This document shows positions 1-34,728 of a stretch of DNA of 34,728 bases, one piece after another. The notes under the pieces are model-generated. The model was not told where the DNA came from, did no database searches, and saw nothing but the letters and a program-made list of their open reading frames with translations. The first letter of the stretch is position 1; each line of letters starts with the position of its first letter. The DNA lies in IMG/VR virus record IMGVR_UViG_2660237933_000001. One strand, given 5' to 3'. This DNA is from a virus. Its lineage: Duplodnaviria; Heunggongvirae; Uroviricota; Caudoviricetes. The position numbers were made by a program, and so were the translations under genes.

Positions 1-483
1 ATGACGAAGAAAAAAGCACATAAACCTGGTTCAGCGACCATCGCGCTTAACAAGCGCGCCCGTCACGAATACTTTATCGAAGAAGAGTTCGAAGCGGGAC
101 TTGCCCTGCAAGGCTGGGAAGTTAAATCCCTGCGCGCAGGAAAAGCCAATATCAGCGACAGCTACGTCCTTCTGCGTGACGGAGAGGCATTTCTGTTTGG
201 CGCTAACATCACGCCAATGGCCGTGGCCTCCACGCATGTGGTGTGCGATCCTACCCGTACCCGCAAGTTACTTCTCAACCAGCGCGAACTGGACTCATTG
301 TACGGTCGCGTCAATCGAGAAGGCTATACCGTAGTGGCGCTCTCCCTGTACTGGAAAAATGCCTGGTGCAAAGTGAAAATCGGCGTCGCCAAAGGTAAGA
401 AACAGCACGATAAACGTTCAGATATCAAAGAGCGCGAATGGCAGGTGGATAAAGCACGTATCATGAAAAACGCCCACCGTTAA
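1..483 (+). CDS. smpB: SsrA-binding protein SmpB
   Basis: 160-aa ORF whose sequence ([30 protein letters not shown]...) I recognise as enterobacterial SmpB; located directly upstream of tmRNA as in E. coli. Confidence 0.95.
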
Positions 484-697: not shown

Positions 698-1060
698 GGG
701 GCTGATTCTGGATTCGACGGGATTTGCGAAACCCAAGGTGCATGCCGAGGGGCGGTTGGCCTCGTAAAAAGCCGCAAAAAATAGTCGCAAACGACGAAAA
801 CTACGCTTTAGCAGCTTAATAACCTGCTTAGAGCCCTCTCTCCCTAGCCTCCGCTCTTAGGACGGGGATCAAGAGAGGTCAAACCCAAAAGAGATCGCGT
901 GGAAGCCCTGCCTGGGGTTGAAGCGTTAAAACTTAATCAGGCTAGTTTGTTAGTGGCGTGTCCGTCCGCAGCTGGCAAGCGAATGTAAAGACTGACTAAG
1001 CATGTAGTACCGAGGATGTAGGAATTTCGGACGCGGGTTCAACTCCCGCCAGCTCCACCA
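698..1060 (+). ncRNA. ssrA: tmRNA (transfer-messenger RNA)
   Basis: Begins GGGGCTGATTCTGGATTCGACGGG, ends ...GGGTTCAACTCCCGCCAGCTCCACCA; internal tag reading frame GCAAACGACGAAAACTACGCTTTAGCAGCTTAA (ANDENYALAA-stop) at 787-819; length 363 nt. Confidence 0.95.
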
Positions 1061-1070
1061 AATAAATCAA

Positions 1071-1102
1071 GGGGTTACGTGAAAGCGTAGCCCCTTTTTC
1101 TT
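1071..1102 (+). terminator. Rho-independent terminator downstream of ssrA
   Basis: Stem GGGGTTACG / CGTAGCCCC (one mismatch) with loop TGAAAG, followed by TTTTTCTTT. Confidence 0.55.
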
Positions 1103-1118
1103 TGGTAGTGGCGGCAAA

Positions 1119-1157
1119 ATGGCGACAGACTTTTGCGTCCATCTTGCCTGTCGCCAT
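1119..1157. promoter_or_regulatory. Candidate operator: 10-bp perfect inverted repeat ATGGCGACAG / CTGTCGCCAT
   Basis: Repeat arms at 1119-1128 and 1148-1157 separated by 19 bp, sitting 27-65 bp upstream of the ATG at 1184. Confidence 0.3.
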
Positions 1158-1183
1158 CTTGAAATCATGCAAAGAGGTTTCAC

Positions 1184-1666
1184 ATGGAAGAACTTCACTT
1201 TGTTTACATCAATGCAAATGGTCGTATCGCTGTTCACTCTATACAGAGCATCAGTTATAGCGAAAATCATATACAGGGCATTTGTAAGAACACCGATCGA
1301 ATAAAAACCTTCCGAAAAGACCGCATTCTTAAACAGTACGATTCACCAGAACAAGCCATTCAGGAATGCGCGTCATTCCTCCCCGAAAGCTACTCACATC
1401 TCACTAAGCAGTCTGGTCCGAAAAAAAATACATTCGATGTGTGTTTCACCGGATTTAAGAAAGCAGATAAAGAAAGATTGGTTGATAAGGCGAATGAACA
1501 AGGATTAACGGTAAGAACCTCTATAACCCAAAGCCTTCAGATGCTCTGTTGCGGTTACAATGCAGGCCCATCAAAAGTATCGGCAGCCAGGATGAAAGGC
1601 ACAATCATCATAGATGAGCCTGGCTTTATACATTTTCTTGAAACGGGTGAGATTCCAGATGAATAA
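1184..1666 (+). CDS. Hypothetical protein, N-terminal WYL-like region and C-terminal BRCT-like region
   Basis: 160-aa ORF with AGAGG 6 nt upstream of the ATG; N-terminal ...GICKNTDRIKTFRKDRI resembles the WYL-domain signature; C-terminal DVCFTGFKK...GLTVRTSITQSLQMLCCGYNAGPSKVSAARMKGTIIIDEPGFIHFL resembles a BRCT fold pattern. Domain calls are from motif memory only. Confidence 0.55.
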   Translation: MEELHFVYINANGRIAVHSIQSISYSENHIQGICKNTDRIKTFRKDRILKQYDSPEQAIQECASFLPESYSHLTKQSGPKKNTFDVCFTGFKKADKERLVDKANEQGLTVRTSITQSLQMLCCGYNAGPSKVSAARMKGTIIIDEPGFIHFLETGEIPDE

Positions 1667-1667
1667 A

Positions 1668-1685
1668 AACCTGCCGTAGCAGGTT
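1668..1685. terminator. Hairpin between convergent genes (likely ogr terminator, possibly bidirectional)
   Basis: AACCTGC-CGTA-GCAGGTT perfect 7-bp stem; on the minus strand it is followed by TTTTTATTC. Confidence 0.5.
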
Positions 1686-1692
1686 CTCTTTC

Positions 1693-1911
1693 TCAAAAAT
1701 TCATATGCCCCTGACCACCTGGCAATGGATGTGGAGGAGCAGTAGCAATCAGTGCGGGTGTCACAATAAACCGGACCACTGTTTCATGAGTAACAAAAGT
1801 GCTCCCGCAGTTAATATTTTGGCACTGGCAGTAACGCTCTTTGGTGCTTTCAGTTACTTGAAAACTGCTCCTTGTGTGTGCCGCATGACCACACTTTGGA
1901 CAATTCATCAT
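1693..1911 (-). CDS. ogr: Ogr/Delta-type zinc-finger late-gene activator
   Basis: Start chosen at the MM doublet (MMNCPKCGHAAH...KERYCQCQNINCGSTF...RFIV...PHPLPGGQ), giving about 72 aa with a CxxC...CxC...C pattern like P2 Ogr; the ORF track shows a longer 87-aa frame. Confidence 0.8.
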   Translation of the reverse strand: MMNCPKCGHAAHTRSSFQVTESTKERYCQCQNINCGSTFVTHETVVRFIVTPALIATAPPHPLPGGQGHMNF

Positions 1912-1979: not shown

Positions 1980-3080
1980 TTATTCCATTTCAAGATCATC
2001 AATCTTCACTTCGAGTTCAATACTGGTTGTAAAACCGTTATCCGGGCTGACGGTATGTGTCAGAGTCGTAATGGTCCATTCCGCATCATCTATCGGCTGT
2101 TTAAAACCACTGACCTTCACAGGCATTTCCGTGTAGAGATCTGCCCGCCCTTCTGCCAGTTGTAGCGAAAATGACGCAACGCCGCGTTGCAGGCGTTCCC
2201 ACTGCATTTTCGCCGCTCGTTCGGCGTTGCTCCGGTTGGCATAAGTGCGATTAAGTACCAGCACGTTTTCATCCGTACCCACCAGGTAATCGCCCTGCTT
2301 CGCTTCTGGCTCTTTCTTCTGCTTCTTAGTTCTGCGCTTACGCTTCACCGTGGTGCTTTCTTTCTTCGCAGGTTCGCGGGTATGCAACCAGCTGGCAATT
2401 ACGCCCGTGTAGGCTCCGCGATCTGCCAGGGTAAATCGGTGACTGTCGCCGTCCTTGCGTGTGATAGTGATCACTGGCAGAGGTTTACCAGTGGCGCTTT
2501 TGCCCTGCCCCTGCCGGATGAATAACAGATTGCCATTTTTCACCGACGCGATGGCACCGTACTGTCGCGCCAGCCGCATCAGAAAACTGCCGTCACTCTC
2601 ATTAGTCTGGTCTATATGCTCCACGGGCTTATCCGACAGGTCTTTACCCAGTGCCATCTTCAGCTTGTGCCGCGCGGCTATTTCCTTCACCACTTCCCCG
2701 ACGGTGGTCTTATGCCACGATTTTTCACGGCGGGTATTCAGCGTTTCCCGAAAATCAGCACTTCGCGCCCGGATAGTCAGGCGGTCCGGTGCGCCAGTGT
2801 GTTCAATCTCGTCCACTGTGAATGCCCCTTTCGGGAAAAGCGGCTGCCCCTTCCAGCCCAGCGCCAGCGTAATAACCGCACCACGGCGCGGCAGCACGAT
2901 TTTTCCGTCAGCGTCATCCAGCTCCAGATCAAGCTGGTCCGCTTCAAAGCCCCGGTTATCCGTCAGCGTCAAACTCATCAGGCGGTTATCCAGCACAGTG
3001 GTGATATCCCTGCCCTCAATACTGATGCTGAATGCGGGAGTTTTGTTGCCTTTGTTAAGCAGTTCAGAGCTGAAATTCAC
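1980..3080 (-). CDS. D: Tail protein D (P2 gpD-like)
   Basis: 366-aa ORF, N-terminus MNFSSELLNKGNKTPAFSISIEGRDITT..., position and size as P2 gpD at the end of the FI-FII-E-T-U-D operon. Confidence 0.85.
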   Translation of the reverse strand: MNFSSELLNKGNKTPAFSISIEGRDITTVLDNRLMSLTLTDNRGFEADQLDLELDDADGKIVLPRRGAVITLALGWKGQPLFPKGAFTVDEIEHTGAPDRLTIRARSADFRETLNTRREKSWHKTTVGEVVKEIAARHKLKMALGKDLSDKPVEHIDQTNESDGSFLMRLARQYGAIASVKNGNLLFIRQGQGKSATGKPLPVITITRKDGDSHRFTLADRGAYTGVIASWLHTREPAKKESTTVKRKRRTKKQKKEPEAKQGDYLVGTDENVLVLNRTYANRSNAERAAKMQWERLQRGVASFSLQLAEGRADLYTEMPVKVSGFKQPIDDAEWTITTLTHTVSPDNGFTTSIELEVKIDDLEME

Positions 3081-9971: not shown

Positions 9972-10412
9972 ATGAGTAAATATCTTTACGATGCAAAAAC
10001 TAATATGTTTTACCCATTTACTCTGGAAAGTCAGTATAAGGAGTCTGGGTTATGGCCTCATAATGGAGTTGAAGTTGATGAGGATATATTTATTAAGTAC
10101 CTGTCCCCACCTCCAGGGAAAGTGAGAGTTGCGGGTGATGATGGCTATCCTGCATGGGATGACGTACCGCCGCTAACTCATGAAGAACAACTGTCAGAAG
10201 CGGAACGAAAAAAACAGGCACTCATAAATCGAGTTAATGAATATATTAACAGTAAGCAGTGGCCAGGAAAGGCTGCTATTGGTCGTCTGAAAGGTGAGGA
10301 ACTGGCGCAATATAATTCATGGCTTGATTATCTGGACGCACTGGAAATGGTTGATATTTCCAGTGCTCCAGATATTGAATGGCCTACGCCTCCGGCTGTT
10401 CAGGCCAGATGA
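9972..10412 (+). CDS. Tail fibre assembly protein (alternative, for the silent fibre tip)
   Basis: Starts 1 nt after the alternative fibre segment stop (MSKYLYDAKTNMFYPF...); C-terminal ...LDYLDALEMVDISSAPDIEWPTPP parallels the other assembly protein; the ORF track shows a longer frame starting at 9900. Confidence 0.7.
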   Translation: MSKYLYDAKTNMFYPFTLESQYKESGLWPHNGVEVDEDIFIKYLSPPPGKVRVAGDDGYPAWDDVPPLTHEEQLSEAERKKQALINRVNEYINSKQWPGKAAIGRLKGEELAQYNSWLDYLDALEMVDISSAPDIEWPTPPAVQAR

Positions 10413-23746: not shown

Positions 23747-23753
23747 AAGAAAA

Positions 23754-23775
23754 GGCGCTAATCTCAGCGCCTTTT
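23754..23775. terminator. Bidirectional rho-independent terminator
   Basis: GGCGCT-AATCTC-AGCGCC perfect stem flanked by A-run upstream and T-run downstream; sits between convergent Q and the 112-aa cargo gene. Confidence 0.65.
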
Positions 23776-31538: not shown

Positions 31539-32171
31539 ATGATACAGGTAAAGGCTGGAGAGAATACAGGGGGAAGAGAAGCTATCCATAGACTAATGGC
31601 AGCCTATGATTTCAAGTCCAGACAGCAACTTTGCGATCACTTAGGCGCATCAAAAAGCACCATGGCAAACAGATACTTAAGAGATAGTTTTCCTGCAGAG
31701 TGGGTGATTCAGTGCGCCTTGGAAACAGGAGTTTCTTTACTGTGGCTAACCACCGGACAGGGGGAGCCAGGTCCAAACATTGAACCTAAAAAAAATATCA
31801 ATTCCGTGAACTCCAGCAAGGTTGTACCTCTTTCTGAACTAGTATCTCCTGAAATTGACAAGGCGACTCTCAACGGTGGTTTATTGGTCGATGCTGGAAA
31901 AGCAATCATTGATAGCAGCATACTCCCCTCAGACTCAAGCAACCTACTGCTGGTGACTACTTCTGGTGATTCTTATTTAATAGATCGCAACCAAACACCA
32001 CCAGTGAATGGTATGTGGTTAGTCGATATCGACGGGATAAAAAGCATTGTTAAATTGACTCGACTCCCGGGAAACAGATTAGTAGTGCATCAGGATGATT
32101 CATCGTTTGAGTGTGGCCTGGATGACATTGAGGTAGTAGGCCGTGCACTGAAAATCATTAAGAGCCTTTGA
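31539..32171 (+). CDS. cI: CI-like immunity repressor
   Basis: 210-aa ORF divergent from apl and directly upstream of int (1-nt gap), as in 186 cI-int. Confidence 0.7.
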   Translation: MIQVKAGENTGGREAIHRLMAAYDFKSRQQLCDHLGASKSTMANRYLRDSFPAEWVIQCALETGVSLLWLTTGQGEPGPNIEPKKNINSVNSSKVVPLSELVSPEIDKATLNGGLLVDAGKAIIDSSILPSDSSNLLLVTTSGDSYLIDRNQTPPVNGMWLVDIDGIKSIVKLTRLPGNRLVVHQDDSSFECGLDDIEVVGRALKIIKSL

Positions 32172-32172
32172 T

Positions 32173-33186
32173 ATGACCATCAGAAAACAGCCGAACGGAA
32201 AATGGTTGTGTGAGTGCTATCCCAATGGACGCAATGGCAAGCGCGTGCGTAAGCAATTTGCCACGAAAGGCGAAGCCATAGCATTCGAAAACTTCACCAT
32301 GGACGAAGTAAACAAAAAGCCATGGCTTGGTGAGAAGGAAGATCGGCGGCGATTATCAGAAGTGATTGAGCAGTGGTATTCCCTATATGGTCAAACACTC
32401 GCAGACCCCAAACGCCTGATGGCGAAACTTAGAATTATCTGTAATGGTCTAGGCGATCCCATCGCCTCTGAGCTGACAGCAGGTGATTTCACAAAATATC
32501 GGGAAGCCAGATTAAAGGGGGAGGTCCAAAATGAAGACGGCTCGTTCATGTCACCCGTTAAACCTCGCACAGTTAATCTTGAGCAGCGTAACCTGTCATC
32601 GGTGTTCGGTACATTGAAAAAACTAGGACACTGGTCCGCACCAAACCCGCTGGCAGGGCTTCCAACCTTCAAAATTGCTGAAGGTGAACTGGCTTTTCTT
32701 TCCACGGACGAAATCAAACGCCTGCTTAATGCCTGCGCCGAATCTCAAAACACCAGCCTACTAATGATTGCAAAAATATGCCTGGCTACTGGTGCGCGAT
32801 GGAGTGAAGCAGAAAACCTGCAGGGCCATCAGTTATCAAAATACCGGATCACCTATACCAAGACAAAAGGTAAGAAAAATCGTACCGTGCCGATATCTCA
32901 AAATCTGTATGACGAACTCCCCAAGAACAGAGGGAAGCTATTCACCCCGTGCAGAAAAGCCTTTGAACGAGCAGTAAAGCGAGCAGGCATCGAGCTACCA
33001 GAGGGCCAATGCACCCACGTGCTGCGTCATACATTCGCCAGTCATTTTATGATGAATGGCGGGAATATTCTGGTTCTGCGCGATATTCTTGGGCACTCAG
33101 ATATTAAAATGACAATGGTTTACGCTCATTTTGCCCCAGAACATCTTGAAGATGCTGTGACCAAAAATCCTCTGCACAATTTATAA
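32173..33186 (+). CDS. int: Tyrosine integrase
   Basis: 337-aa ORF; C-terminal HVLRHTFASHFMMNGGNILVLRDILGHSDIKMTMVYAHF contains the tyrosine-recombinase R/H-x-x-R...Y pattern. Confidence 0.9.
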   Translation: MTIRKQPNGKWLCECYPNGRNGKRVRKQFATKGEAIAFENFTMDEVNKKPWLGEKEDRRRLSEVIEQWYSLYGQTLADPKRLMAKLRIICNGLGDPIASELTAGDFTKYREARLKGEVQNEDGSFMSPVKPRTVNLEQRNLSSVFGTLKKLGHWSAPNPLAGLPTFKIAEGELAFLSTDEIKRLLNACAESQNTSLLMIAKICLATGARWSEAENLQGHQLSKYRITYTKTKGKKNRTVPISQNLYDELPKNRGKLFTPCRKAFERAVKRAGIELPEGQCTHVLRHTFASHFMMNGGNILVLRDILGHSDIKMTMVYAHFAPEHLEDAVTKNPLHNL

Positions 33187-33198
33187 TGGAGAATAATC

Positions 33199-34728
33199 GT
33201 GATTAAAAATATAGACATTCAATCAGATGCTGTTGCTAAATTGAGAATGGACTCTATTCGTTCAGAAATTCAAAGTTATAACCCCGAATTATTCATTGAA
33301 TTCTGCATGCAATATAATCTACAAAAATTTGATGATAATTTACACATGCTGCGTCATATGCCGTGGATAGTAAACTTATGTTTAAAATGGTCAGCATCTG
33401 TAATAGGCAAGAATAGAAAGTTCAAAACCCTTACAAAAAATCAAGCCATCAAGCTATTTCAAAAAGCCTATGAAACTTTAAGTATCATCCCCATTGGTCT
33501 TGAAAAGAAAAACGGAGTGCATTTTTTTCCAAGAAATAATTTATACCAGCAAGGTATTTATCAAAAAATTGACGCAATAAACTCCATTAGCAGACAGGTA
33601 TTTTTATTCTCACAACTCGAAAACACTCATAAAATAAAGACATCGTTTTTCAAGTTAACAAACATTTCAATTGATGATTTTTTAAAACTATCTTACATTT
33701 TAATATCACTAATAACAACGGAACATCCCGTCAGAAAAATAAATGTTAATAGTTTCAGTGTGTTATTCCCTATTTTACCCAAAGATACCGTAGAGAACTT
33801 TCTCGATGCAATCTCAATAAATTACAGTGAGCTATCAAAATTTTCAAAATCCAAGACATTTGAAAAGCCTTTGTTAGAATACTATTCATCTTCACCGTAC
33901 TTAGAAAATCCTTTAATCAAAAAAGGTTCTGATTATTTCCAGATACATGCACAACTAACATCAAGAAGCATACAAACATTTATATATGACCTTTTAAGAA
34001 GAACTGACGCTGAAAAATTCATGGACAGTTTTGGAACTGTATTCGAAAGAGCATTAGGAAAAATTATTCAAGAGAGTAATATTCCTGTTATCACAGAGGA
34101 TCATCTTAAAGAAAAGTTACCCAAAGATAATAAAGTAGTTGATTTTTTGTTTCCACACGCGAATGCAAATATATTCATTGATGCCAAGGGGGTTGAAATA
34201 CATCAAAAAGGCATGGTTACTTTACGGCCAGAGGATATTTCAGGAAAAATAAAAAAGTCTGTTTTAAAAGCTATCGAGCAAGCTCATGAAGTTAACAGAG
34301 AAATTTACTTAGACGATAAAGCAACAATAACCCCATTCAGGAAAGAATCTTTTGTGATATGCATTACATATAAAAACTTATTTTTAGGTAATGGTACATT
34401 CCTTGCCAGTACATATGCAGAAACTGAGATGCTAAAGATATATGATAAATTCAATACTGACTACCACATACCTAAAGAAAATATATTTTGCTTAGCTTTT
34501 GATGAATTTGAGTACCTTGTTGCATCCTGCAAAAATGCACATGTGCCTCCTCATATGGTTCTGCAATACGCAGTTGAAAAGAACAAAGAACCATCCAGTG
34601 CAGCCTTCCTTTTTTCCCAACATATAGAAAGCTATTTTGATAGAGTTATTAATTCTGATGTAGTAAATGAGATGGGAATAAAAATGGTTGACTCAGTTCT
34701 GGAAAAAATTTCCCAAAATGAAAACTAA
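33199..34728 (+). CDS. Hypothetical 509-aa protein, possible PD-(D/E)xK nuclease-like core
   Basis: Long uninterrupted ORF, strongly AT-rich and Lys/Asn/Ile-rich, starting 12 bp after int; contains VVDFLFPHANANIFIDAKG (D...hhh-D-x-K); no Walker A motif seen. Confidence 0.6.
   Translation: MIKNIDIQSDAVAKLRMDSIRSEIQSYNPELFIEFCMQYNLQKFDDNLHMLRHMPWIVNLCLKWSASVIGKNRKFKTLTKNQAIKLFQKAYETLSIIPIGLEKKNGVHFFPRNNLYQQGIYQKIDAINSISRQVFLFSQLENTHKIKTSFFKLTNISIDDFLKLSYILISLITTEHPVRKINVNSFSVLFPILPKDTVENFLDAISINYSELSKFSKSKTFEKPLLEYYSSSPYLENPLIKKGSDYFQIHAQLTSRSIQTFIYDLLRRTDAEKFMDSFGTVFERALGKIIQESNIPVITEDHLKEKLPKDNKVVDFLFPHANANIFIDAKGVEIHQKGMVTLRPEDISGKIKKSVLKAIEQAHEVNREIYLDDKATITPFRKESFVICITYKNLFLGNGTFLASTYAETEMLKIYDKFNTDYHIPKENIFCLAFDEFEYLVASCKNAHVPPHMVLQYAVEKNKEPSSAAFLFSQHIESYFDRVINSDVVNEMGIKMVDSVLEKISQNEN

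Follow-up and report, generated by a model that had tools for sequence, protein, structure and literature searches.

Our analysis concerns a 160-amino-acid (aa) open reading frame (ORF), here called ORF160, and the inverted repeat that lies upstream of it in IMG/VR virus record IMGVR_UViG_2660237933_000001, a 34,728-nucleotide (nt) stretch of Caudoviricetes DNA to which we refer as the window. Positions 1016-1692 are the ssrA-proximal junction of a Fels-2/186-type P2-like prophage, and the repeat is most likely a set of putative P'-arm integrase arm-type sites, with lineage-specific inverted copies, rather than a conserved operator of ORF160. In our model the stretch after ssrA would be the P' arm of the phage attachment site attP, carrying the ssrA terminator and tandem arm-binding sites (GTGGCGGCAAAATGGCGACAG), and the inverted copies of these sites would create the palindrome. 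ORF160 itself appears to be an accessory protein of the phage lysogeny module, in which a WYL domain is joined to a BRCT domain with no helix-turn-helix (HTH), and we propose that it may act by binding DNA. Taking the recombination-site palindrome, the accessory protein and the proposed DNA-binding mechanism together, our confidence lies slightly on the favorable side of even.

A WYL domain and a BRCT domain in one small protein

An AlphaFold (AF2) model built on the homologue alignment (predicted local distance difference test, pLDDT, 91.4) contains two confident domains: a five-stranded barrel (aa 3-52) comes first and, after two helices and a linker, a beta-alpha-beta-beta-alpha-beta-alpha domain (aa 85-154) second. 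The homologue search returned 112 relatives of about 160 aa, from Enterobacterales and beyond, whose alignment consists of two conserved blocks. Along its whole length ORF160 matches PHROG 2561 (E 2e-76, PHROGs). A family profile search covering 1.84 billion representatives gave 190 clusters at E ≤ 1e-30; at E ≤ 1e-3 the number rises to about 2,500, BRCT-only matches included.

The identification of the N-terminal domain as a WYL domain is supported by structure, by the family profile and by relatives that pass the Pfam cutoff. Modelled alone (pLDDT 93.9), the domain is a five-stranded Sm/SH3-like barrel, and the top fold-search matches include the WYL structures of CapW and DriD bound to single-stranded DNA (ssDNA) (PDB 9c5g, 7tzv, 8tp8). 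An initial annotation of this DNA, made from the letters alone, had proposed a WYL-like N-terminus from the motif TFRKDRI. The motif is indeed present at aa 42-48, with T42, F43, R44, D46 and R47 conserved in at least 90% of the family. The W-Y-L tripeptide reads H-I-Q in ORF160 and Y-I-Q in the family consensus, so that the Y/I positions alone are retained. Searched against the PDB, a narrow profile of the N-domain (A2) returned only chance matches to streptokinase; once widened with relatives from the representative library (A3), it matched the WYL domain of PafBC (E 2.8e-6), PafC (3.3e-4) and PafB (2.4e-3), with YiqG placed over the W-Y-L motif and RTFRkDRI over RxFRlDRI. The PADLOC WYL model aligns to ORF160 at E 0.041, Pfam WYL matches one of 36 close homologues (E 0.003), and four fused relatives (P0144, P0248, P0250 and P0199) reach 27.6-28.6 bits at exactly the position homologous to the N-domain, above the 21.8 that Pfam sets as the gathering score for WYL. 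The WYL similarity thus emerges through the family rather than from ORF160 alone.

The better-known proteins PafBC, DriD, CapW and BrxR carry an N-terminal winged HTH and a WCX extension and are about 290-330 aa long. ORF160 has neither of these parts, its 160 aa running instead from the WYL domain into a BRCT domain; its barrel begins at residue 3, and no HTH was found in Pfam, NCBIfam or the structure model. Because it lacks HTH and WCX and carries a BRCT in their place, we do not regard ORF160 as a transcription factor of the PafBC/DriD/CapW/BrxR family. To our knowledge, every characterised WYL protein links the sensing of ssDNA or of a ligand to an HTH or an enzyme.

Judged from its sequence, the C-terminal domain appears to be a BRCT of the RFC1/LigA type with a phosphate pocket, and here too the initial annotation, which had seen a BRCT-like pattern, was borne out. 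In sequence, the BRCT domains that the family profile most resembles are those of RFC1 and LigA (E ~5e-5), Pfam BRCT matches 31 of the 36 homologues (best E 2e-6; several relatives over the cutoff), and the model of ORF160 has the BRCT fold. T89, G90 and K131 are invariant in the 36 sequences, K131 standing at the N-terminus of helix 129-137. A BRCT phosphate pocket is defined by S/T-G after beta1 and a lysine at the start of alpha2 (PMC10386641), and in RFC1 this pocket mediates DNA-end binding (PMC6334254). The domain resembles the BRCT domains of RFC1 (p140), of the NAD-dependent ligase LigA and of subunit B of T5-like phage ligases. It differs from these proteins in being a single BRCT fused to a WYL domain, with no ligase, clamp-loader or other catalytic module: no catalytic domain was detected in ORF160, whether ligase, clamp-loader or exonuclease. 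The LigA and DEDDh models match ORF160 in the BRCT tail only and score well under their cutoffs (24.9 versus 389 and 17.6 versus 444, respectively). Since the similarity is restricted to the BRCT tail, the labels under which the family circulates are unjustified misnomers, namely 'DNA ligase' for PHROG 2561, for NC_049342 gp44 and for NC_008201 ORF34, and 'putative exonuclease' for NC_070909 gp32.

The combination of WYL and BRCT has been catalogued before, in a domain census (Makarova et al. 2014, PMC4012209) that described neither its function nor its context or structure; ORF160 shares its domain combination with that architecture and with PHROG 2561. A scan of the fusion partners of relatives found no effector domain, only an unannotated domain of about 200 aa, transmembrane segments and tandem modules, none of which has a Pfam match. 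The WYL-BRCT unit is fused N- or C-terminally to the unannotated domain (motifs 'AFR[DE]ALD…WTQG…F.F..GD') or to transmembrane segments, or is tandemly duplicated, in P0113, P0115, P0123, P0154, P0170, P0199, P0144, P0163 and P0121. The top BFVD match of ORF160, H9EB15 from Vibrio phage SSP002 (162 aa), was the only match of similar length aligned over the whole protein (template modelling score 0.39) and is, on its predicted structure, a candidate two-domain relative in another phage.

The inverted repeat as probable integrase arm-type sites

A perfect 10-base-pair (bp) inverted repeat upstream of the 160-aa ORF had been read in the initial annotation as an operator of that gene, set over its putative promoter. 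The repeat is there, as is the ORF: its arms, ATGGCGACAG (1119-1128) and CTGTCGCCAT (1148-1157), are separated by 19 nt, and the symmetry extends to 14 nt at 93% (1115-1128 / 1148-1161). Perfect inverted repeats of at least 10 bp with a loop of at most 40 nt are rare: the 34.7-kb window has them at three places only, and first-order Markov shuffles of its whole sequence average 1.46; the other two lie at 10338-10366 and 23750-23775. The octamer TGGCGRCA is present in 12 copies in the window where 3.85 are expected, and three of the copies fall within 1109-1156.

What, then, is the repeat made of? Arm 1 is the second octamer of the tandem GTGGCGGCAAAATGGCGACAG. The tandem GTGGCGGCAAAATGGCGRCAG, which contains the first repeat arm, matches the published arm-site consensus of 186-type integrases, tgccGCCActt (Nilsson et al. 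2011, PMC3448106), and tAGTGGCGGCAaa at 1106-1118 is the reverse complement of that consensus (motif aagTGGCggca). The tandem motif also occurs on the int-side (P) arm in Cartapus (TGGCGACAttttGGCGGCA), in Fels-2 and in two relatives that share the 509-aa cargo gene of the window (L089 and L090), where the tandem stands about 95 bp before the 45-bp core ATGTAGG…CCACCA. It is conserved in every relative, including Fels-2, which has no ORF160, and loci with other integration targets carry a changed motif, for example TGGCAGCA and TGGCGATA at tRNA-Met. Moreover, strict conservation in a six-way alignment extends from the core across the ssrA terminator to exactly 1128, where arm 1 ends. It is the match to the consensus, the presence of the tandem on both arms, its conservation where ORF160 is missing, its change with the integration target and the end of the conserved block at 1128 that lead us to read these repeats as arm-type sites, a reading that we regard as supported.

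Arm 2 and the degenerate inverted copy TGGACGCA are confined to the E. coli lineage of 97-100% identity. Loci with 69-72% orthologues lack arm 2 but keep a degenerate inverted copy adjoining the tandem, and arm 2 is also missing at homologues linked to cI. In its att-site features the window is of ordinary 186-type build. It shares with 186-type P2-like arm sites (PMC3448106) both the motif and the presence of two or more direct repeats to each side of the core, and differs from them in that the present lineage adds inverted copies, which give the perfect 10-bp palindrome. By these comparisons the present analysis maps the probable attP arms of the ssrA-integrating Fels-2-like phages. A separate candidate, an RNA element at 1100-1190, was rejected, the RNA fold of this segment being unremarkable (z -1.58).

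An accessory gene of the phage

The locus was placed in E. coli by megablast against 5426 complete genomes. All 5426 match at ssrA; the match continues through ORF160 and ogr in 165 of them and ends in the remainder at window position ~1060-1066, the 3' end of ssrA. Because the unoccupied genomes stop matching at this point, ORF160 is not a host gene of empty ssrA loci. The gene order of phage Cartapus, cI - int - RES-domain cargo - attP - ORF160 - ogr, shows that ORF160 belongs to the phage genome and lies on the side of attP that faces ogr. On the other hand, Fels-2, SopEPhi and RE2010 are without ORF160, sharing only the first 68 bp after ssrA and then proceeding directly to ogr, and the gene is also missing from P2 and 186.

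In IMG/VR the setting of the homologues is constant: all 80 loci with one have the order ORF160 -> <- ogr <- gpD, and this synteny persists in homologues of as little as 58% protein identity and where the integration target is another one, tRNA-Met among them. The family was found in 28 of 50,697 phage records. Patchy presence among close relatives, a terminator of its own (the hairpin at 1668-1685) and a deviant guanine-cytosine (GC) content, which is 42% for the cassette and 41% for ORF160 versus 52% for the prophage, are the marks of a moron or accessory cargo gene, and these sequence comparisons support the view that ORF160 is dispensable, low-GC phage cargo. In this respect the initial annotation was right to suggest cargo at the att-proximal end of the prophage, convergent with ogr and sharing with it a hairpin terminator, which does lie between the two stop codons. 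The attachment to defence systems that it noted as frequent for WYL proteins is not seen here: ORF160 stands by itself, and PADLOC yields no more than a partial match to the BRCT.

Is the gene equally isolated from the lysogeny functions? In distant P2-like phages it is not. Mannheimia phage PHL101 has CI -> homologue, with the annotated ribosome-binding site (RBS) of the homologue within the end of cI, and Vibrio phage PV94 has CI -> homologue -> gp03 -> int. A relative of 45% identity (L092) stands in the order CI -> homologue -> Int with gaps of 2 and 14 nt, and another locus (L093) reads HTH -> Flk_N -> homologue -> YebY -> Int; the order in Burkholderia phages is XRE -> hypothetical gene -> homologue <- gpD. 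When the present phage is circular, cI -> int -> cargo -> attP -> ORF160 likewise follow one another on a single strand, with attP lying between int and ORF160 in the present lineage. Because homologues stand in the cI-int operon of distant P2-like phages, and because the circular form preserves the same-strand order, we conclude that the WYL-BRCT family is a long-standing but dispensable lysogeny-module gene of Peduoviridae, normally arranged as cI -> WYL-BRCT -> int. The arrangement recalls the rexAB genes of lambda, which are co-transcribed with cI, in that the distant relatives of ORF160 likewise follow cI directly and on the same strand. It differs from rexAB in that there is no sequence relationship and that in the window attP separates ORF160 from cI-int, while in the prophage ORF160 comes after ssrA with its terminator.

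Possible functions of ORF160

How could a protein of 160 residues act with neither an HTH nor a catalytic domain? By analogy with PafBC, DriD and CapW, the WYL barrel may bind single-stranded nucleic acid, and the BRCT, being of the RFC1/LigA type, may bind a 5'-phosphate DNA end or nick through the T-G…K pocket. Both domains together would then recognise gapped DNA or ss/ds-junction DNA with a 5' phosphate, and in the absence of a catalytic domain ORF160 would act by occupying, marking or recruiting at such DNA in lysogens. Possible roles would be to exclude superinfecting DNA or to modulate the response of host or prophage to DNA damage. This bipartite-recognition model, the most economical one, is suggested by two observations, namely that ssDNA-bound structures are among the WYL domains at the top of the fold search and that the nearest BRCT relatives act at 5'-phosphate ends or nicks. 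The domain identities are supported as described above; the ligand binding, expression and biological role of ORF160 are inferred.

Several observations weigh against this explanation. Searched on its own, ORF160 gives no match to Pfam WYL (PF13280) at E ≤ 10, and its Pfam BRCT (PF00533) score stays sub-threshold, at 18.6 bits versus a gathering score of 21.3 (E 0.0022). A promoter scan of the plus strand from ssrA to ORF160 found no consensus sigma-70 promoter, manual inspection yielding weak candidates at about 6/12 matches, and the strong ssrA terminator stands upstream of ORF160 in the integrated and in the circular state. PADLOC gives no full-length match of ORF160 to any defence family, and a literature search found no functional study of WYL+BRCT in prophages, of BRCT anti-phage roles or of PDC-S48. 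Finally, the exact arm 2 is kept across the 97-100% group, and in this lineage it may have a regulatory use of its own, such as control that depends on Int or on ORF160.

Among more specific roles we rank a lysogen-protective or exclusion function first and a ligase helper second, and we hold neither to be probable. According to the first, ORF160 is a prophage anti-phage or superinfection-exclusion factor, or a sensor feeding a host effector, triggered by the ssDNA or DNA ends of an incoming phage. Its relatives are co-transcribed with cI, the classic position of an exclusion gene, while in the present phage it occupies an att-flanking cargo slot beside another variable cargo gene; WYL domains serve as sensors in BrxR and CapW, and a marine homologue adjoins Mrr and a methylase. 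There is also a partial match to the PADLOC candidate PDC-S48, but of the 411 positions of that model only 334-406 align, to aa 82-153, which is the BRCT tail only, and the same holds in the fused relatives, so ORF160 is not a member of PDC-S48. Moreover, the protein has no effector domain, its conservation over long distances and fixed synteny are unlike fast-turnover defence cargo, and the literature search found no experimental report. We consider an exclusion role possible, though unlikely.

A helper role in ligation appears more doubtful. Here ORF160 would recognise nicks on behalf of a DNA ligase, like the BRCT-bearing B subunit of the split T5-like phage ligases, and promote the sealing of cos nicks or repair. 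The 'DNA ligase' label of PHROG 2561 agrees with this, as does the resemblance, in sequence and fold, to the LigA BRCT and to ligase subunit B of PR1/Eps7. However, the resemblance is confined to the BRCT domain, no partner catalytic subunit is encoded nearby, the gene is dispensable, being missing in Fels-2, P2 and 186, and placement in the lysogeny operon suits a function in the lysogen better than a lytic one.

Less probable again is the operator hypothesis of the initial annotation, under which ORF160, as a ligand-sensing regulator, would bind its own operator in the palindrome 1119-1157. It is true that a perfect inverted repeat just upstream of the RBS is unlikely by chance, that WYL proteins are often regulators and that arm 2 is kept in all close relatives. 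Yet ORF160 has no HTH and opens with the WYL barrel itself; arm 1 falls in a block conserved in Fels-2, which lacks the ORF, and belongs to the arm-site tandem that matches the consensus; arm 2 is not kept at the 69-72% orthologue loci; there is no room for an intergenic palindrome where the gene follows cI; and the promoter scan was negative. The remaining idea, that ORF160 belongs to the host or forms a small separate element beside ssrA, outside the prophage, as its position outside the ogr-to-int block and its lower GC might suggest, is refuted by its absence from unoccupied ssrA loci, its place in Cartapus between attP and ogr and its constant linkage to ogr and gpD, and its probability is negligible.

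Other features of the window

The coordinates of the features discussed above, and of their neighbors, are collected in Table 1. The 509-aa ORF that closes the window has a GC content of 31.6% and gave no Pfam or PADLOC match and no megablast match in the 5426 complete E. coli genomes. Cartapus carries a RES-domain protein in the same int-attP slot; with a different gene in each phage, this slot has the look of a hotspot for variable cargo, across attP from ORF160. The far end of the window likewise has no match in complete E. coli genomes, and attR was read from IMG/VR relatives instead. In L089 (7860-8300) and L090 (2550-3000) a P4-type integrase gene starts beyond the int-distal att core (ATGTAGG…CCACCA), and this second integrase past the core indicates tandem islands at ssrA in these two relatives.

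Table 1. Features of the window around ORF160 and at its far end
Feature	Position	Strand	Basis and remarks
smpB	1-483		Opens the window
ssrA (tmRNA), integration target, 3' end phage-supplied	698-1060	+	ARAGORN; unoccupied E. coli genomes match only to ~1060-1066
att core / identity segment, 45-bp ssrA 3' end, also in attP	1016-1060		Identical 45-mer in Cartapus attP and at the L089/L090 int-distal junction
Intrinsic terminator of ssrA, phage-borne, 12-bp stem and T run	1069-1096	+	Kept in the attP of Fels-2, of Cartapus and of the ~70% group
Tandem direct octamers TGGCGGCA (1109-1116) and TGGCGACA (1120-1127), 11 bp apart	1109-1127	+	Putative P'-arm integrase arm-type sites
Inverted copies: degenerate TGGACGCA (1134-1141) and exact TGGCGACA (1149-1156, palindrome arm 2)	1134-1156	-	Possibly extra arm-type sites, lineage-specific
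Cassette of 564 bp (ORF and terminator) in place of 49 bp of Fels-2	1129-1692	+	Comparison and alignment
ORF160, 160 aa	ATG 1184 to TAA 1664-1666	+	RBS AAAGAGG 1171-1177, 6 nt before ATG
WYL domain, aa 3-52, five-stranded Sm-like barrel, Y8 … T42-F43-R44-x-D46-R47	1190-1339	+	Structure, profile, relatives
BRCT domain, aa 85-154, invariant T89-G90 and K131 phosphate pocket	1436-1645	+	Profile, alignment, model
Hairpin, 7-bp stem, between ORF160 and ogr stop codons; probably a bidirectional terminator	1668-1685		Sequence scan
ogr, late-gene activator, convergent with ORF160	1693-1911	-	Then gpD 1980-3080 (-), gpU, gpT, other late genes
CI repressor, 186-type	31539-32171	+	Pfam Phage_CI_repr and Phage_CI_C
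Tyrosine integrase (int)	32173-33186	+	With CI, upstream of ORF160, same strand, in circular phage
509-aa ORF ending the window, directly after int	33199-34728	+	

Implications

In the Fels-2-like lineage ORF160 stands opposite int, with attP between them and putative inverted Int sites nearby, and we suggest, with low confidence, that this position could tie its expression to the state of integration. One specific form of such coupling, an integration-dependent switch by read-through from cI-int across attP, was set aside: the phage-borne ssrA terminator precedes ORF160 in both states. As a broader and tentative suggestion, to which we attach low confidence, WYL-BRCT proteins may be an uncharacterised class of WYL sensors without an HTH that P2-like (and other) phages carry in their lysogeny module. 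Each such protein, single and small, would read ssDNA together with a 5'-phosphate end and, through occupancy or recruitment, either exclude superinfecting phage or satellite DNA or tune RecA/SOS-linked prophage induction.

More generally, our analysis illustrates that a conspicuous palindrome next to a gene may belong to the architecture of recombination and need not be an operator, and it corrects a widespread misannotation of the family as 'DNA ligase' or 'exonuclease'. A WYL domain fused only to a BRCT of the nick/5'-phosphate type, and long kept in the cI-int operon of P2-like phages, would point to a way in which prophages may read DNA damage or incoming DNA.

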